DNA of 64,000 bases from an uncultured Candidatus Binatia bacterium (GTDB lineage: Bacteria > Desulfobacterota > Binatia > UBA9968 > JAJDTQ01). The DNA lies in contig OZ244070.1 of assembly GCA_965215605.1 (NCBI GenBank), positions 736,001-800,000 on the forward strand. The letters are read 5' to 3'. Within the stretch, counting starts at the first letter, position 1; every line of letters begins with the position of its first letter. The translations under genes and the position numbers were made by a program. Below the pieces are notes generated by a model, which saw only the letters and a program-made list of their open reading frames with translations, had not been told where the DNA came from and did not search any database. Positions 6,847-14,124 of the stretch are shown here, piece by piece.

Positions 6847-8139
6847 GTGACCCGCAAGATCTTCTACGGCTGGTACATCGTCGGCGTCGGCTTCATCTGC
6901 TACCTGGGCTCGTCCTTCGCGCTATCCAGCACCCTCAGCATCTTTCTGAAACCCCTCACGGCCGAGTTCGGCATTTCCCGGGGGGTCTTCTCGTTCATCC
7001 GCAGCGGCGAGGTCCTGTTCTCCTCGGTGATAGCGGCCTTGGTAGGACCCCTCATCGACGGTTACGGAGCCCGATGGCTCATCGTGACCGGGGCGCTGGT
7101 GGGAGGCGCCGGCTTCATCCTGCTCAGCCAGATCCAGGAGTTCTGGCAGTTCATGTTCATACGATGGCTCCCGGTCACCGTCGGCGACACCCTCATGAGC
7201 TACATGGTGGTCAACGTCATGATCTCGCGATGGTTCATCCGCAAGCGGGGGCGCGCCATCTCCATCGCCAACACCGGGAACGGCCTCGCAAAGGCGACCA
7301 TGCCCCTGCTCGCCGTGTGGCTCTTCGCGCTGGTGGGCTGGCGCAACACCTGGATGGTATTCGGCCTGTTGACCCTGGCCATGGTGGTGTTGCCGGCCTT
7401 CCTGGTGGTCCGACGAAGCCCGGAGGATATGGGCCTGCAACCGGACGGCGCGCTGGCGTCTCATGAACCCTTCCCGGGCAGGACTCCGGAACGGGAAGGC
7501 CACCAGGCACCCGCCGCCGAAATCACATGGACGCGAAAGGAGGCCGTCCGCACCGGCACGTTCTGGTTGCTGGTCATCACCTACGGAACCGTCACGTTCG
7601 GGATCATCGGGTTGAACCTGCATATCTACCCCTACATTACGGACATCGGCTATTCGCCCGAGGTAGCCGCCACGGTCATGGGGGCGATGTCCCTGACACA
7701 GATGGCCGGCAACCTCATCTGGGGAGTGGTGGGCGAGCATATCGACGTGCGCAAGGCGGCCGCCGCCCAGTTCCTCCTGCAGGTTTGCGGCCTGGCGCTG
7801 GCCCTTGCGTCCCTGGGGCTGGGCTCGGTCTACCTTGGTTTCATCATCTACGGATTCGGCCTGGGCGGGATCCTGGTGATTCGCGAGCTGCTGTGGGCCA
7901 ACTACTTCGGCCGCGTCTCCCTGGGCCGCGTGCGCAATCTCGGCATCATGATCACCCGGATAGGCACCACCGCCGGCCCGCCCTTCTTCGGATTCTTCCA
8001 CGACTACACCGGCAGCTATTCCCTGTCGTTCGGCGTCTTCATCGGCGCGCTGCTGCTCTCGGCGTTCCTGGTCCTGGCCGTGCGCCCCCCGGGCAAGGCC
8101 GCCCCCTTGGGCGAGGTCCACCAACCGGCGACGCCATGA
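6847..8139 (+). CDS. MFS transporter (OFA/monocarboxylate-like), paralog 1
   Basis: About 12 hydrophobic segments, FYGWYIVG, GPLIDGYGAR, WFIRKRGRA and WANYFGRVSLG. Confidence 0.9.
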   Translation: MTRKIFYGWYIVGVGFICYLGSSFALSSTLSIFLKPLTAEFGISRGVFSFIRSGEVLFSSVIAALVGPLIDGYGARWLIVTGALVGGAGFILLSQIQEFWQFMFIRWLPVTVGDTLMSYMVVNVMISRWFIRKRGRAISIANTGNGLAKATMPLLAVWLFALVGWRNTWMVFGLLTLAMVVLPAFLVVRRSPEDMGLQPDGALASHEPFPGRTPEREGHQAPAAEITWTRKEAVRTGTFWLLVITYGTVTFGIIGLNLHIYPYITDIGYSPEVAATVMGAMSLTQMAGNLIWGVVGEHIDVRKAAAAQFLLQVCGLALALASLGLGSVYLGFIIYGFGLGGILVIRELLWANYFGRVSLGRVRNLGIMITRIGTTAGPPFFGFFHDYTGSYSLSFGVFIGALLLSAFLVLAVRPPGKAAPLGEVHQPATP

Positions 8140-9380
8140 CGCGCCAAACCAACCGGCCGTGGGTCATCGCCGGAGCCGCCTCGTTCACGTTCGGCTCCAT
8201 TCGCGGCCTTCACACATCCTTCGGCGTCTTCTTCGTGGCTCTCCTCGACACCTTTCACTGGAGCCGCGCGGTCACCGCCGGGCTTCAGACGGCAAACATG
8301 GTAACCGATGCCCTGGTATCGCCGTTCATCGGCCGCCTCACCGACCGCCTGGGGCCGCGGCGGGTCGTCATGGCGGGCAGCGTCGTCCTGGCCGCCGGTC
8401 TGGTCCTGTGCAGCCAGGTCAGCACGGCGTGGCAGCTCTATCTCTCTTTCGGGGTGGTGATGTCGCTGGGGTTCGCGGCCGGCGGCGTGATCCCCCACGT
8501 GGTGGTGGTGTCGGAGTGGTTCCCGTCCCGCCGGGGCCTCGTGCTGGGCATCGTCTACGGGGCGGTGGGCGTGGGCACCCTGATCCTCTCGCCCCTCAGT
8601 CAGTGGCTGATCTCCCTGTGGGGCTGGCCGCGCGTGTTCCAGGCCCTGGCGGCGGCCATTGTCATCGTCATCATTCCCCTGGTGTGGAGCACCTACCGGC
8701 CCAGCCCGCAAAGCACGCGCGAGCCGGCGGGAGTGAGGGGCGCCGCCGCGGGCGAGTGGTCGGCTTCCCTGGCTTTGAGGAGCATACAGTTCTGGGGCCT
8801 GTTCATCTCCCGGATGCTGGGCTCGGTGGGCACCATGCTGATCGTCACCCATCAGGTCGCTCACGTGGTGGACATCGGTTACAGCCACATCTGGGCCGCC
8901 GGGGTCTTCGGCGTCATGGCCTTCGTCAGCGCCGCGGGACGCGTGGCCTTCGGCTACCTCGCCGACGCCTTCACCAAGACGGCGGCCTACACCCTCAACA
9001 TCGCCTGCGCCGCCGTGGGCGTCCTCGCCCTCACCTTGGCAACCGACACCTCGCAGCCCTGGCTGCTCTACGTCTACGTCGGCGGCTTCGGCATCGCCTT
9101 CGGCTCCCGCGCCGTCATCCTCTCGGCCATCACCGCCGATATCTTCGCCGGCAAGGGCTTCGGGACCATCTTCGGGTTCTCCGTCGTAAGCGTGGGCGTC
9201 GGCGGCGGGCTGGGCGCCTGGCTGGGCGGCGCGCTGCATGATCTCACCGGCACCTACTTCGTGTCGTTCACCGTGGCCAATTCGCTGCTGCTGGTCTCGG
9301 TGCTGGCGGTGTGGGTCACCGGGCTCGACTGGATGCGCCGGTTCGACCGGCGGCTGTGGCCGGTTCCGGGCAAAGATTGA
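8136..9380 (+). CDS. MFS transporter (OFA-like), paralog 2
   Basis: GRLTDRLGPRR MFS motif A and WFPSRRG; ATGA overlap with the upstream stop. Confidence 0.88.
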   Translation: MTRQTNRPWVIAGAASFTFGSIRGLHTSFGVFFVALLDTFHWSRAVTAGLQTANMVTDALVSPFIGRLTDRLGPRRVVMAGSVVLAAGLVLCSQVSTAWQLYLSFGVVMSLGFAAGGVIPHVVVVSEWFPSRRGLVLGIVYGAVGVGTLILSPLSQWLISLWGWPRVFQALAAAIVIVIIPLVWSTYRPSPQSTREPAGVRGAAAGEWSASLALRSIQFWGLFISRMLGSVGTMLIVTHQVAHVVDIGYSHIWAAGVFGVMAFVSAAGRVAFGYLADAFTKTAAYTLNIACAAVGVLALTLATDTSQPWLLYVYVGGFGIAFGSRAVILSAITADIFAGKGFGTIFGFSVVSVGVGGGLGAWLGGALHDLTGTYFVSFTVANSLLLVSVLAVWVTGLDWMRRFDRRLWPVPGKD

Positions 9381-9505
9381 CTCGGACGGAGCGATTGCCT
9401 AGTTAAAGAGTCTTCCTGAACGCATCAAGCCCGCGCGTACCGCACCCCCGCTGCCGGAGGAGAAAAGCATGAGCCGACCGCCCGTCATCGACGCCCAGGA
9501 CCGCC

Positions 9506-10819
9506 GTGAACCCTGATTCCACCCACCGCTCCGCAAGCCCTGGGATCTTCTATGGCTGGTACATCGTCGGCGCCGCCTTCCTGGCCAACATTTCCTGCGC
9601 CTTCTTCCTCTCCAGCACCCTCAGCGTCTTTCTGAAGCCCGTCACCGCCGATCTCGGCGTGTCCAGGGGGATCTTCTCGCTGCTGCGATCGGGTGAGCAT
9701 CTCCTGTACGCCCTCATGGCGCCCTGGGTGGGGACCAAGCTGGACCAGTACGGCCCGCGCGGCATGATGGTCGCGGGCGCGGTCCTTTCGGCCGTCGGGT
9801 TCCTGCTGCTGGGGTGGGTGTCCTCCTTCTGGCAGTTCGCGTCCGTGCGCGTGACCCTGATGGCCGTAGGCCATGCGCTGGTCTGCTACTTCGTGGTGAA
9901 CGTCACGGTGGCCCGGTGGTTCGTCAGGATGCGGGGGCGGGCGCTGGCCCTCTCGCACCTCGGGCACGGCGTCGCCAAGGTGGCCATCTCCGCGGCGGTG
10001 GGCTGGCTCTTGACGTTCATCGACTGGCGCCAGGTCTGGACCCTGTTCGGCGTGCTGGTGGTGGGGCTGGCGGTCATCCCGGTGGCCATTTTCATGCGGC
10101 GAAGCCCGGAGGACGTGGGGCTTCATCCGGACGGCGACGACGCCCGCGGGCCGGCGGGCGGCACGGTCGACGGGAAAGGCCGGACAGCGAGGACCGGGGA
10201 CGAACCGGAGCCCGACATCCGCTGGACCCGAAAGGAAGTGCGCCGGACGTCCACCTTCTGGTTGATCATCCTGGCATTCGGCATGGTGGACATCGGCATC
10301 ACCGGCCTCAACCTTCACGTGGTCTCCTACGTTTCGGACCTGGGATTCGGCGGAGTTCCGGCCGCCCTGACCATGACCGTCATCGCCGGGACGCAAGCGA
10401 CCTCGGGGCTCTTGTGGGGCTTCGTCGGCGAGCGCGTCAGCGTCCGCAAGGTCATCTCGTTCCTGTTCCTGGTGGAAGCTGCCGGGCTCTACGTGGCGGC
10501 CAACGCGCAGGACCTCTCGACCATCTACCTCGGGTTCTTCTTCTACGGCCTGGGGCTCGGCGGCGCCCAGGTGCTGGAAGAAGTCATGTGGGCGAACTAT
10601 TTCGGCCGGATCTCGCTCGGCACCGTCCGCGGCGCCGCCCTGCAGATCGTGCTGTTGTGCGGGGTCTGCGGGCCCCCGTTCTTCGGTTTCGTGTACGATT
10701 ACACCGGGTCCTACCGGATCTCCCTCTTCCTGTTCATGACCATGCTGCTGATTTCATCGGCGCTGACGCTTACAATACGCAGGCCGCGGCGCCCGGCCGG
10801 GCTCGAACCGGCCGGGTGA
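9506..10819 (+). CDS. MFS transporter (OFA-like), paralog 3
   Basis: FYGWYIVG, LDQYGPR, WFVRMRGRA and WANYFGRISLG. Confidence 0.9.
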   Translation: MNPDSTHRSASPGIFYGWYIVGAAFLANISCAFFLSSTLSVFLKPVTADLGVSRGIFSLLRSGEHLLYALMAPWVGTKLDQYGPRGMMVAGAVLSAVGFLLLGWVSSFWQFASVRVTLMAVGHALVCYFVVNVTVARWFVRMRGRALALSHLGHGVAKVAISAAVGWLLTFIDWRQVWTLFGVLVVGLAVIPVAIFMRRSPEDVGLHPDGDDARGPAGGTVDGKGRTARTGDEPEPDIRWTRKEVRRTSTFWLIILAFGMVDIGITGLNLHVVSYVSDLGFGGVPAALTMTVIAGTQATSGLLWGFVGERVSVRKVISFLFLVEAAGLYVAANAQDLSTIYLGFFFYGLGLGGAQVLEEVMWANYFGRISLGTVRGAALQIVLLCGVCGPPFFGFVYDYTGSYRISLFLFMTMLLISSALTLTIRRPRRPAGLEPAG

Positions 10820-10840
10820 TCGGCCGGCCCGCTCAAGGGA

Positions 10841-12139
10841 ATGCAGAAATCCGCTAGACCCAGGCTGTTCTACGGCTGGTACATCGTCGGCACCGGCTTC
10901 GTGGTGCAGCTCGCCTGCCCCTTCTACCTTTCCAGCACCCTCGGGGTGCTGATGAAGTCCATCACCGCCGATTTCGGCGTTTCCCGCGGAACGTTCTCGC
11001 TCATGCGCGCCATGGAACTGGTGAGCTACGCCGGCGTGGCGCCGTGGATCGGCTCCCTGCTGGACCGCTACGGCGCGCGCTGGCTCATGGTCATCGGCGC
11101 GGCCATCTCCATCGCCGGCTTCCTGCTGCTGGGATACGCCCGCAACTTCTGGGAATTCACGTTGATACGGGTGGGGCCGGTATCCATCGGCCACGCCCTG
11201 GTGTGCTACTTCGTGGTCAACGTCACCATCTCCCGCTGGTTCGTGAAGAAGCGCGGCCGGGCCGTGGCCATAGCGCACCTGGGACAGGGCATCTCCAAGA
11301 CCGCCATCGCCCTGGTCGCGGCGGTGCTCCTCACCGCCATCGGCTGGCGTTACGTGTGGATCCTGTTCGGGGGCTTGGTGATCTTTCTCATCCTGATCCC
11401 GGCGGCGGTGTGGATGCGGCGGAGCCCGGAGGACCTCGGGCTGCACCCCGACGGCGCCCCCGAACCCTACGGGTCCCGTGACGAGACCTCCGCGGACCGG
11501 CCCGGCGGCCATCGGGCGTCCGCCGACGTGAGCTGGACCCGGCGGGAAGCCATGAGCACGTCCACCTTCTGGCTCATCACCTTCATCTTCAGCACCGTCG
11601 ACATGGGGGTGGCGGGCTTCAACCTCCACCTGGTCCCGTTCATATCCGACATGGGCTACTCTGCGGTATGGGCCGGCTCGGTGCAGACGGTCAGCGCCGC
11701 GACCCAACTCGGCTCGGGCCTTCTGTGGGGATTCGCGGGGGAACGGGTCAGCGTCCGCAAGGCCACTGCGTTGATGTTCGTCATACAAGCCTCGGGGCTC
11801 GTCCTCGCCATCCAGACAACCGAGTTGCGCTGGCTCTATGTAGCCTTCTTCCTCTACGGGGCCGGCCTGGGCGGCGCGCAGGTCCTCCAGGAGGTCATGT
11901 GGGCCAACTACTTCGGCCGCATATCCCTCGGCACGGTGCGGAGTCTCAGCGTGCCGATCCTCCTGCTCTGCGCCGCCACCGGCGGCCTCGCCTTCGGCTA
12001 CCCCTACGACTACACCGGCAGCTACGACCTGTCCCTGACCCTCTTCATCGCCGTGCAGGTCCTGTGCGCGGGAGTCACGCTGCTCATCCGGCGGCCGGTG
12101 AAAACCGCGCCGCTTGCGGCCGGCAGCGCCCTCCGCTGA
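10841..12139 (+). CDS. MFS transporter (OFA-like), paralog 4
   Basis: FYGWYIVG, LDRYGAR, WFVKKRGRA and WANYFGRISLG. Confidence 0.9.
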   Translation: MQKSARPRLFYGWYIVGTGFVVQLACPFYLSSTLGVLMKSITADFGVSRGTFSLMRAMELVSYAGVAPWIGSLLDRYGARWLMVIGAAISIAGFLLLGYARNFWEFTLIRVGPVSIGHALVCYFVVNVTISRWFVKKRGRAVAIAHLGQGISKTAIALVAAVLLTAIGWRYVWILFGGLVIFLILIPAAVWMRRSPEDLGLHPDGAPEPYGSRDETSADRPGGHRASADVSWTRREAMSTSTFWLITFIFSTVDMGVAGFNLHLVPFISDMGYSAVWAGSVQTVSAATQLGSGLLWGFAGERVSVRKATALMFVIQASGLVLAIQTTELRWLYVAFFLYGAGLGGAQVLQEVMWANYFGRISLGTVRSLSVPILLLCAATGGLAFGYPYDYTGSYDLSLTLFIAVQVLCAGVTLLIRRPVKTAPLAAGSALR

Positions 12140-12276
12140 CGGCTCCGCGTCCCACCCAGAAATATCAGCCTCCGGGTCCGACCATCCCTTAAGTCCGCTC
12201 CGAAACGGACGACTTAATTTATATAGGCGCCTACATCGGTTCGAGGACTTGAACTCAAGCAAGGAGGACTACCAAA

Positions 12277-12948
12277 ATGCAGATTCTGGACTTTTTCACC
12301 CAAAATGATTCTATCGTGACATCATGGATACTGGACCCGGACGGCGACGATCTCGACCTGGAGATCCACGGGTGCGGTTGTGGATGCGGGTGCGGTTGTG
12401 GATGTGGCTGCGGATGCGGCTGTGGATGCGGGTGCGGGTGCGGATGTTCCTGCTCGTGCGACAACACGGGTGCCAACGAAGAAGACAGCGATGACTACAG
12501 TGCGCCGGAAAGCAACTATGCCGACAGCGAAGACTTCTCCGGACCGGAGTACGCGCTTGAGGACACGCCGGCTCCAGCAGATACCACCGCTTCTACGGAC
12601 GATGCATCATCTGTCATTTCAGGTTGTATCTCCTCGGCGGCAACGTCATCATTGGGGTTGGACCCTGTAGCCGAACTGACGGGCGAACACTACGATCCCA
12701 ACGTGGACGAGGATTTTATCACCACAGGAACGCGTGGTCTTGGAGACATGATGTCGCCTCCCACCAACATTCCGGCCGTAATAGAGACGATTGGAGCTGC
12801 CCTAGGCGATCCGGATTGTCAAGCGACGATTGGTAATGCTGTCGACGCCGCCATTGACGGGTTCACTGACGTCCTGAGCGAAGTCGATCAACAGCTCAAG
12901 GCGGCCGATGAGTCCATACAGAATGCGGCCGGCTCGCTGCGTAACTGA
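12277..12948 (+). CDS. hypothetical protein with (Gly-Cys)13(Ser-Cys)2 tract, acidic linker and helical C-terminus
   Basis: Strong AAGGAGG RBS before the ATG; 223-aa ORF; repeat encoded by mixed synonymous codons. Confidence 0.8.
   Translation: MQILDFFTQNDSIVTSWILDPDGDDLDLEIHGCGCGCGCGCGCGCGCGCGCGCGCGCSCSCDNTGANEEDSDDYSAPESNYADSEDFSGPEYALEDTPAPADTTASTDDASSVISGCISSAATSSLGLDPVAELTGEHYDPNVDEDFITTGTRGLGDMMSPPTNIPAVIETIGAALGDPDCQATIGNAVDAAIDGFTDVLSEVDQQLKAADESIQNAAGSLRN
12370..12459 (+). repeat. degenerate 6-bp coding repeat (GGN-TGY)x13 then (TCN-TGC)x2
   Basis: ggg tgc ggt tgt gga tgc ... tcc tgc tcg tgc read directly from the sequence. Confidence 0.95.
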
Positions 12949-13056
12949 GGTGACCTCGTAACATCGCATAATCCGAGAGTTTGCGTCCCTCCCGCGGGGG
13001 ATGCAAACCCTTCGGGTTCGACCGGATTCTCCGAGAAGCAGAGGGTTGGAGACACC

Positions 13057-14124
13057 ATGACAAAACACTCTTGCGTGAAACATTCGGCATCCGTCACCCT
13101 GGCGTTGTCTCTGCTCTGGATCGTCTTGGCCATCAACCCTTCCGCTGGTCAAACGACGCCAACCAAAGGCACACCGCTCCACCTATGTCTCGACACCCAC
13201 AGGGACTGGAGCGCACGGGTTGACGCATGCCGTGCAGCCGCTGAGCAAGGGCACTCGGAAGCCCGGTACCATCTCGGCGTCATGCACTTCAAGGGGCGCG
13301 GTGTACCGCGCGATGCCGGCCAGGCGAGGTATTGGTACCGACTTGCCGCCGATCAACGACACCCGAAAGCCCAGTACAATCTCGGAACCATGTACGCTTT
13401 GGGCCAAGGCATTCCCAAGGACCTCGAAGCAGCGTTGCGCTGGTACCGCTCGGCCGCCGAACAGGGAAACCTGGCGGCACAGTACAACCTGGGGACGATG
13501 TATTTTCGCGGACACGGGACACAAACGGACCACGCCGAAGCGCTACGCTGGTACCGCTCGGCCGCCGAACAAGGATTTGCCTTGGCGCAGACCCAACTGG
13601 GGACAATGTACCACTCCGGGAACGGAGTACCCCAGGACTACGCTACGGCGTTGCGCTGGTACCGCTCGGCCGCCGAACAAGGAGACCCGCGCGCCCAATA
13701 CAACCTTGCGACGATGTATGACAAGGCACACGGAGTGGCCCAAGACTACACGAAGGCAATGCACTGGTTCCGGTTGGCGGCCGAGCACCGGCACGCAGGC
13801 GCACAGTACAACCTCGGTGTGATGCACTCAAAGGGCCACGGCGTACCCGTGGATTATGTCAAGGCCGCTCAATGGTACCGTAAGGCCGCTGAAGGCGGAT
13901 TCGCCCTGGCACAGTTCCAACTGAGTCTCATGTACATTCAAGGACACGGGGTTGGTCGAGATCTCGTACTCGCGTACATGTGGCTCGACTTGGCAGCCAC
14001 CGATAACACCCAGCCATGGACGGTCGCGCGTGATAAATTGGGAGAAACAATGGCACTCGAGCAGGTAGCAAAAGCACGGCAATTGGCACGCGCATGGTCG
14101 GAGAAACTTCGGCAGAGCAAGTAG
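13057..14124 (+). CDS. secreted Sel1-like repeat (SLR/TPR) protein, 7 repeats
   Basis: Seven 36-aa AQYNLGxMYxxGxGVxxDxxxAxxWYRxAAEQG units; N-terminal hydrophobic signal-like segment. Confidence 0.93.
   Translation: MTKHSCVKHSASVTLALSLLWIVLAINPSAGQTTPTKGTPLHLCLDTHRDWSARVDACRAAAEQGHSEARYHLGVMHFKGRGVPRDAGQARYWYRLAADQRHPKAQYNLGTMYALGQGIPKDLEAALRWYRSAAEQGNLAAQYNLGTMYFRGHGTQTDHAEALRWYRSAAEQGFALAQTQLGTMYHSGNGVPQDYATALRWYRSAAEQGDPRAQYNLATMYDKAHGVAQDYTKAMHWFRLAAEHRHAGAQYNLGVMHSKGHGVPVDYVKAAQWYRKAAEGGFALAQFQLSLMYIQGHGVGRDLVLAYMWLDLAATDNTQPWTVARDKLGETMALEQVAKARQLARAWSEKLRQSK

Follow-up and report, generated by a model that had tools for sequence, protein, structure and literature searches.

We analysed an open reading frame (ORF) at positions 12277 to 12948 of a 64,000-nucleotide stretch of forward-strand DNA from an uncultured Candidatus Binatia bacterium (assembly GCA_965215605.1, contig OZ244070.1, positions 736,001 to 800,000), here called the window. 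The protein of 223 residues begins with a leader-like module, continues with a tract in which every second residue is Cys, and ends in a domain that is replaced by unrelated ones in its relatives. On balance we favour the view that it is a substrate, encoded in trans, of a pathway formed by a multinuclear non-haem iron oxidative enzyme (MNIO, PF05114), a DUF2063-like partner, an ABC transporter and an HlyD protein; we place this proposal, drawn from sequence comparison, slightly above an even chance. That the variable tail is a toxin with a paired immunity gene we suggest with a little less confidence.

Leader, Cys tract and tail of the encoded protein

The ORF and its parts are as follows.

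12261..12267, forward strand: Shine-Dalgarno-like AAGGAGG, 9 nt 5' of the ATG at 12277, read from the sequence.
12277..12948, forward strand: ORF, 223 aa, member of the leader-plus-GC-tract family, from the ORF list, homologues and strain substitutions.
12277..12369, forward strand: leader-like N-terminal module, residues 1-31, from conserved positions in alignments.
12370..12459, forward strand: Cys tract (GC)13(SC)2, residues 32-61, putative MNIO target; its first GCGCGC is invariant in the family.
12460..12591, forward strand: acidic Asp/Glu/Ser-rich linker, residues 62-105, beginning DNTGAN, read from the sequence.
12592..12945, forward strand: C-terminal 'type A' domain, residues 106-223, putative toxin-like cargo, variable among family members.

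A preliminary description made from the letters of the window had reported a strong ribosome-binding site, a 31-residue leader, 15 alternating Cys residues, an acidic linker and two further Cys, and all of these were confirmed exactly. The acidic leader terminates in DPDGDDLDLEIH, and the two further residues, Cys117 (12625-12627) and Cys181 (12817-12819), fall within the C-terminal part. Codon use in the tract is mixed, as had also been stated, with all four Gly codons and both Cys codons represented (TGC 10, TGT 5, GGA 5, GGG 4, GGT 2, GGC 2, TCC 1, TCG 1). The tract DNA was scored by Tandem Repeats Finder as a degenerate tandem repeat with periods of 6, 18 and 24 and 76-84% matches. An antisense His-Pro ORF at 12255..12476 was rejected as a mirror artefact of the Gly-Cys repeat.

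The earlier statement that the protein belongs to no recognised family holds for Pfam and NCBIfam. The sole Pfam signal was to keratin-associated proteins (KRTAP, E = 0.98), which is meaningless, and NCBIfam gave zero matches. Neither collection returned a metallothionein family signature, nor the precursor signatures of bufferins, oxazolins and captophorins (DUF2282, Buf 6/12-Cys, EGKCG repeats). The N-terminus is acidic and has no hydrophobic segment of the kind expected of a Sec signal peptide. The AlphaFold2 model of the protein, computed from alignment A1 (described below), had a mean predicted local distance difference test score (pLDDT) of 56.6 and was confident for the last ~50 residues only, which are predicted to be helical (pLDDT 77-93); the leader was predicted to be disordered, and pLDDT was low in the linker.

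Selection on the tract between strains

Contigs from other samples supplied strains about 96% identical to the window. The tract differs between strains by two indels, +6 nt and -24 nt, each in frame, and by 11 substitutions, 10 of which are synonymous; the eleventh combines with one of those to change Gly to Ser. Not one tract Cys has been lost and no substitution falls in the leader, while the linker and C-terminal part together carry 5 synonymous and 20 non-synonymous changes. It is clear that the alternating Cys pattern and the leader are kept by protein-level selection and that tract length drifts through repeat dynamics. The tail of the ORF evolves fast. The preliminary description had argued for protein-level selection rather than DNA slippage, and the first half of that argument is borne out by the synonymous changes; the second half needs a qualification, since the +6 and -24 nt differences indicate that tract length has been altered by slippage or recombination.

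A reading in which there is no functional gene here, only a hexanucleotide repeat made by slippage that holds a frame open, could appeal to the repeat detected in the tract and to its different lengths between strains. The indels are nevertheless in frame, the leader is invariant, the tract changes are synonymous, a strong ribosome-binding site precedes the start codon, and 27 of the 28 genomes of the genus contain a family match. We regard this reading as vanishingly improbable and as effectively refuted by the conservation data. Comparison with homologues indicates instead that the feature is a real, conserved protein-coding gene.

A rare family with a constant head and interchangeable tails

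Homologue searches had been proposed as a check on the preliminary description, and they bore it out. A word-indexed search returned 37 proteins at E ≤ 0.01 among 2917 candidates, all unnamed or annotated as 'hypothetical'; they share a common N-terminus and have retained the tract. Alignment A1 contains the ORF and 25 of these 37 homologues, with near-duplicates and N-terminally over-extended calls omitted. W17 and G32-C37 (GCGCGC) are invariant in all 26 aligned sequences and L19, D27, L28 and E29 are nearly so; a second alignment of 19 sequences (A2) is concordant. The invariant GCGCGC is usually preceded by DLDLE[IV]H. The general plan of the family is a common N-terminus, a Cys tract of varying composition (GC, SC, DGGC and others), an acidic linker, and C-terminal domains that are unrelated to one another. 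The tract holds 3-16 Cys (median 12) in the 44 of 48 proteins that fitted the tract pattern, the other 4 being left out of the count, and a TGA[NH] motif follows it in 16 of the 44.

A profile of the leader (the first 45 residues of alignment A2) matched 30 proteins at E ≤ 0.001 among 1.84 billion representatives. The family is therefore rare, the more so because six of the 30 were discounted: these giant FN3-repeat proteins (P0041, P0047, P0050-P0052 and P0054) match positions 4-32 only, by chance or through a resemblance in strand pattern. The match to them covers the first two strands of the repeats (pattern ..ITLTW......YEVDVDG). By this likeness, which is a resemblance only, the leader may form a beta-hairpin.

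Among species-representative genomes the family was located at 18 loci, all in metagenome-assembled genomes that carry the label Candidatus Binatia or an older delta-proteobacterial name. When 201 genomes were sampled across the class, it was present in the genome of the window (G000) and in 10 of 11 others of the same genus, and absent from all 189 genomes of other genera. Within the genus the matches number one to six in each carrier genome, some of them with stop codons or truncated. By these searches the leader-plus-GC-tract family is rare and found in one genus of Candidatus Binatia only.

Paralogues in the same genome with the leader and a (GC)n tract, which the preliminary description had suggested looking for, were not found; the only object recovered by the profile in the window's genome is a leaderless remnant of LAS type (C1:349920-350477) adjoining an insertion sequence (IS) element. 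Partial copies occur at other loci. In L016 and L018 a 59-aa stub of leader and tract abuts a Sel1-family gene, and L004 has an additional truncated family copy. A 69-aa ORF in L020 (9977-10186) consists of leader and Cys tract alone, with no cargo domain, in an unrelated metabolic context of formyltransferase, AMP-ligase and xanthine-dehydrogenase-type genes. It is probably a truncated copy, the alternative being a minimal precursor.

Family members adjoin MNIO operons in related genomes

In locus L013 the family member (10001-10801) is followed 98 bp on by an MNIO gene (PF05114, MbnB/TglH/ChrH, E = 3.4e-70) and then by genes for a DUF2063-like protein (E = 0.0019), a 761-aa ABC transporter and HlyD. 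In L024 the MNIO gene starts 7 bp past the family member, and partner, ABC transporter and HlyD genes come after it. Locus L025 holds, in order, a family member, an S9 peptidase, MNIO, partner, ABC, HlyD and a TauD-like gene. The same locus has a further pair of MNIO and partner genes, preceded by a LAS-type protein with a leader-like N-terminus and no Cys tract; in L026 a C-terminal remnant alone precedes the MNIO.

The LAS-type protein of L025 (15785-16663, reverse strand, 292 aa) has the conserved Trp followed by an acidic ...ELELDVD.. stretch. It may be a case of the leader working without a tract, or a decayed copy.

The window itself contains no gene for a modifying enzyme, as the preliminary description had correctly stated. 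Its genome has exactly one PF05114 gene (C1:403718-404599), 344 kb from the ORF, which encodes an enzyme 82% identical to that of L013 and is followed by a DUF2063-like protein, an ABC transporter and HlyD in the L013 order. No precursor lies beside this MNIO: the upstream gene encodes a DUF6282 protein, and the 225-bp spacer contains no Cys-rich ORF. Compared with PDB, the MNIO profile matched the DUF692 protein 3bww (E = 3.3e-37), TglH (E = 2e-16) and MbnB (E = 5.8e-8). The partner protein had no match among PDB sequences.

An MNIO orthologue with at least 78% identity is present in 26 of the 28 genomes of the genus. Of the two without it, G089 (98% complete) also lacks the family, which G205 (76% complete) does carry. 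In genomes of other genera no MNIO match exceeded 37% identity. Across the class, weak MNIO matches were counted in 146 of the 201 genomes; the unpublished G087 and G183 contribute to this tally alone.

The description of the protein as a RiPP-like precursor (RiPP, ribosomally synthesised and post-translationally modified peptide) with a fused cargo domain is thus backed by homologues and by gene neighbourhoods. Its accompanying label, orphan, is apt within the window. Genome-wide it does not apply, given a family present across nearly the whole genus and an MNIO operon available in trans.

Weighing a trans-encoded substrate against an unmodified tract

Several observations weigh against the proposal that the ORF encodes a trans-acting pathway's substrate. 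The ORF is separated from the operon by the 344 kb given above, and most members in other genomes also lie away from any MNIO. The DUF2063 match of the partner, in L013 and in the window's genome, reaches E = 0.0018-0.0019, about 19 bits against a Pfam cut-off of 27.2, and the AlphaFold2 model of the partner is poor (pLDDT 43.9; alignment A3, 6 rows). The ABC transporter of the window's genome lacks an N-terminal domain of ~160 aa that is present in the operons adjoining family members; in the L013 transporter the match to Peptidase_C39 is itself weak (E = 7.3e-4, 19.8 bits, cut-off 22). The leader has no canonical double-glycine site and ends HG-C. Finally, the co-occurrence of family and MNIO is limited to one genus and is of small statistical weight. 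Because all carriers are kin, it amounts to one lineage-level observation plus one joint absence and is no statistical test. The cases of adjacency carry more weight.

A competing explanation takes the protein for a toxin or bacteriocin that is polymorphic and secreted, with a tract that stays unmodified and serves as a flexible, disulfide- or zinc/copper-binding spacer or as a trafficking element, while the MNIO operon has another substrate and merely shares its lineage with the family. Shared ancestry could explain the co-occurrence in one genus, the majority of copies stand away from any MNIO, and the C-terminal types pair with type-specific downstream genes, one type being LAS-peptidase-like. 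What this explanation does not anticipate is that family members lie directly upstream of MNIO-partner operons at no fewer than three loci in three genomes, that the MNIO of the window's genome has no alternative precursor beside it, and that an invariant GCGCGC behind a conserved leader resembles a recognition site joined to a target site. We consider it unlikely, and continue to prefer modification of the tract by the MNIO.

A separate YcaO cluster in the same genome

The preliminary description had named YcaO or radical-SAM enzymes as the modifying class. The enzyme linked to the family is instead an MNIO. A YcaO gene does exist in the window's genome (G000:C1:495221-497614, 253 kb from the ORF), and Gly-Cys and Ser-Cys suit the chemistry of YcaO substrates, so that a precursor of the thiazole/oxazole-modified microcin (TOMM) or microcin B17 type, cyclised to thiazol(in)es, can be envisaged. 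The YcaO cluster, however, has its own NHLP-type precursor with a CCC core and its own canonical C39-ABC exporter. Searches for an orthologue of the YcaO recovered it from 16 of the genus's 28 genomes and missed it in 11 of the 27 family carriers, five of those 11 being single-contig assemblies; at none of the 18 loci does a family member adjoin a YcaO gene. With its own precursor cluster, and missing from 11 carriers, the YcaO is not the dedicated enzyme of the family, and we judge a YcaO-made product very unlikely. The GC-tract proteins share with microcin B17 and other TOMMs a Gly-Cys/Ser-Cys-rich core behind a leader; those systems depend on YcaO, whereas here the YcaO is tied to another precursor and is dispensable for the family.

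The YcaO locus (L027, G000:C1:479000-498999) is a separate RiPP-type cluster. It comprises an HlyD-like gene, a 740-aa C39-ABC exporter, a 973-aa second transporter-like gene and a methyltransferase. The NHLP-like precursor (9002-9265, 87 aa) terminates in its Cys-Cys-Cys core, which comes behind an ...AG site, and the YcaO is part of a 798-aa fusion encoded on the opposite strand.

C-terminal types are paired with type-specific downstream genes

The gene that follows the ORF in the window begins 109 bp downstream.

13057..14124, forward strand: Sel1-repeat protein, 355 aa, candidate immunity or partner protein of type A, from Pfam Sel1.

This protein matches Pfam Sel1 with seven repeats (E = 2.5e-74) and has a single N-terminal hydrophobic segment. 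Wherever the C-terminal domain is of type A (the window, L003, the second copy in L004, and L005), the next gene is a Sel1-repeat gene (4 of 4), and L005 keeps this pairing despite a different wider context. The type A domain is common only to P0001, P0002, P0045 and the genes in L003, L004 and L005. Type B (L008-L012 and L017) is followed in six of six cases by a gene for a multi-pass membrane protein of 159-198 aa with up to three strongly hydrophobic segments, and type C (L006, L007 and the second copy in L016) in three of three by one for a small membrane protein (123-139 aa, two to three hydrophobic segments). At L011, L012 and the three type C loci, whether the downstream genes are homologous was judged by eye from the sequences. 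In a further, LAS-like C-terminal type the H..D / HxH pattern known from LAS zinc peptidases is present. Searched against PDB, the profile of this type hit the N-terminal domains of Hedgehog proteins (E = 2.9e-5), single proteins staying below the Pfam cut-off.

A constant N-terminal module with swappable C-terminal domains, cognate downstream genes, truncated copies and remnants is characteristic of polymorphic toxins and glycine-zipper bacteriocins. To judge from the sequences, the constant head and gene-paired tails of the present family have the architecture of such toxins or bacteriocins with cognate immunity genes, and the tails may accordingly be named candidate toxins. What sets the present family apart from those systems is its constant module, which combines a leader of RiPP type with a Cys tract and has a link to an MNIO. 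The preliminary description did not foresee a polymorphic cargo paired with type-specific downstream genes.

Other results count against a toxin and immunity assignment. The type A domain showed no homology to known toxins in Pfam or, for residues 100-223, in the ESM Atlas. A search for longer proteins containing the domain found none, a result of little evidential weight. The roles of Sel1 proteins are many, and no immunity-like gene lies between family member and MNIO in L013 or L024.

The leaderless LAS-type remnant of the window's genome (G000:C1:349846-350980; L023 2846-3980) adjoins an IS3-like transposase gene. A small secreted protein follows it, and a homologue of that protein follows the intact LAS-type gene in L025; the remnant with its secreted neighbour looks like an orphaned toxin-immunity module. 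FGE-sulfatase-like and TauD-like genes are located just downstream.

The tails also bear on the idea, present in the preliminary description, that the protein is a gene-encoded metal binder of metallothionein or phytochelatin type, or a biomineral nucleator, using its alternating Cys directly. Fifteen alternating Cys with no loss between strains would suit such a role, and the lone Pfam signal, weak as it is, points to Cys-rich keratin-associated proteins. A leader, swappable unrelated tails, and type-specific membrane or Sel1 neighbours would not be expected of a metal buffer; family members in relatives adjoin MNIO and exporter operons; and in the window the ORF lies outside any metal-resistance operon. 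An unmodified phytochelatin mimic is less likely, and we think direct metal binding of this kind quite improbable.

Proposed pathway

In the pathway that we favour, the 31-residue leader (with W17, D27-L28-E29 and its end ...EIH) would be recognised by the DUF2063-like partner, which would present the Gly-Cys/Ser-Cys tract to the MNIO. Enzyme and partner would be supplied in trans from G000:C1:403718-405324, in an operon that would further provide an ABC exporter and an HlyD-type adaptor and, by position, TauD-like and SDR genes. The MNIO would oxidise the X-Cys units of the tract, with 5-thiooxazoles the likeliest product and oxazolone-thioamides the alternative, at -4 Da per Cys; both chemistries are suggested by analogy with characterised MNIOs. 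The invariant GCGCGC directly after the leader may be the primary modification site. Once oxidised, the tract would form a thiolate-rich, probably copper-binding segment, and the ABC/HlyD pair would export the modified protein. The swappable C-terminal half would then act as an antibacterial toxin, and the secreted Sel1-repeat protein would be its cognate immunity protein.

A bolder and rather doubtful extension, built on analogy, is that these are 'metallophore-armed' polymorphic bacteriocins, in which a copper-binding thiooxazole or oxazolone-thioamide chain would stay on an interchangeable toxin domain. The modified tract might then be a handle for export, receptor binding or uptake, as a chalkophore-like analogue of the siderophore-microcins. 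Type-specific immunity genes would protect the producer, and one modification and export operon acting in trans would serve several scattered precursor-immunity cassettes.

Relation to known MNIO systems and microcins

Gadgil et al. (PMC12668002) report that MNIOs of the large DUF2063-partnered group turn each Lys-Cys of EGKCG repeats into a 5-thiooxazole with loss of four H, and that the products derived from EGKCG bind copper. According to the same paper, known MNIO substrates carry X-Cys-Gly motifs in repeated form, and every Cys in these is a site of conversion (PMC12668002). Metal binding by the tract would fit MNIO chemistry, since thiooxazole peptides bind copper according to that account (PMC12668002).

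Antoine et al. 2025 (PMC12452194) report that precursors of protein size may be modified by MNIOs, and that precursors which have no signal peptide accompany DUF2063-like partners termed 'PME-type 2'. Table 2 of that paper lists an uncharacterised group, 'adjamnio-I', of 100 sequences with 122-293 aa, 8-21 Cys and no signature, in the gene order precursor, MNIO, PME-type 2 (PMC12452194). Compared by description alone, this group agrees with the GC-tract family in the order of the operon genes, in protein length and in number of Cys; the part of the description at hand mentions neither polymorphic tails nor immunity-like genes, ABC/HlyD genes or trans copies. By this comparison the GC-tract family possibly corresponds to adjamnio-I, catalogued there, as far as the accessible sections go, without description. 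In our literature search the name 'adjamnio' was confined to that one paper (PMC12452194).

Captophorins, oxazolins and bufferins, as presented in the two papers (PMC12668002, PMC12452194), share with the present system repeated X-Cys-Gly units as targets and an MNIO with a DUF2063/RRE-type partner. Long, protein-sized precursors are known among them, and 3bww, the structure closest to this MNIO, is a DUF692 protein of that broad group. They differ in that the ORF has no Sec signal and no Pfam or NCBIfam precursor signature, that the precursor is encoded in trans, and that its C-terminal domain is polymorphic, with paired genes downstream. The operon here includes an ABC exporter and HlyD, and the partner, below the DUF2063 threshold, resembles what the second of these papers calls PME-type 2.

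Methanobactin (MbnA with MbnB/MbnC) likewise has a leader and a Cys core oxidised by an MNIO with a partner, and its product binds copper. MbnB is nevertheless distant from the present enzyme (the PDB match above), no MbnC-type partner was seen here, and MbnA is short, with no cargo domain.

The siderophore-microcins MccE492 and MccH47 are ribosomal toxins with a post-translational metal-chelating group, an immunity gene and export of ABC/HlyD type. Their modification is a C-terminal salmochelin added by unrelated enzymes. They provide a functional analogy for a copper-binding chain carried by a toxin, and receptor-mediated uptake in the present case is purely analogical. A literature search turned up no work joining polymorphic toxins with MNIO enzymes, and nothing specific on Binatota or Binatia with RiPPs or bacteriocins.

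Genomic setting

The gene occupies the same conserved housekeeping position in the window and at 12 of the 18 loci. Upstream, in order, stand transketolase, ThyX and three to four MFS transporters; downstream are an ornithine-cyclodeaminase-like gene, a molybdopterin oxidoreductase and a flavoprotein. In the window the tandem MFS paralogues directly upstream of the ORF span 6847-12139, three being called with space for a fourth at ~8140-9380, and the syntenic loci of relatives retain three to four copies. G+C content at third codon positions (GC3) is 0.61 in the ORF and 0.68 in the Sel1 gene, compared with 0.91-0.92 in the flanking genes. The ORF and the Sel1 gene form a compositionally foreign-looking cassette.

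12193..12210, forward strand: terminator-like hairpin 3' of the upstream MFS gene, from the terminator scan.

The scan found three such sites, this one included, against 1.8 expected, so that the hairpin is not significant alone. It is a faint sign that a separate transcription unit begins with the ORF. A second hairpin of 10 bp, with one G-T pair (arms 12980-12989 and 12997-13006), lies between the ORF and the Sel1 gene, 32 nt past the ORF stop; it lacks a T-run, and the terminator scan passed over it.

Implications

MNIO enzymes are a fast-growing class of RiPP enzymes, known so far for products that are small metallophores or metal buffers. If our reading is correct, full-size proteins whose genes lie far from those of the enzymes would be substrates of an MNIO pathway, and an alternating Gly-Cys polymer with as many as 16 Cys (15 in the ORF) would be a new type of MNIO substrate. 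Genome mining by adjacency alone misses precursors that are encoded in trans. Binatia are an uncultured, phylum-level lineage for which we know of almost no experimental biochemistry, and the present system offers a concrete set for cloning: one precursor, one MNIO and one partner. The same reading, if correct, would unite RiPP chemistry with the modular principle on which polymorphic toxins and their immunity genes are built.

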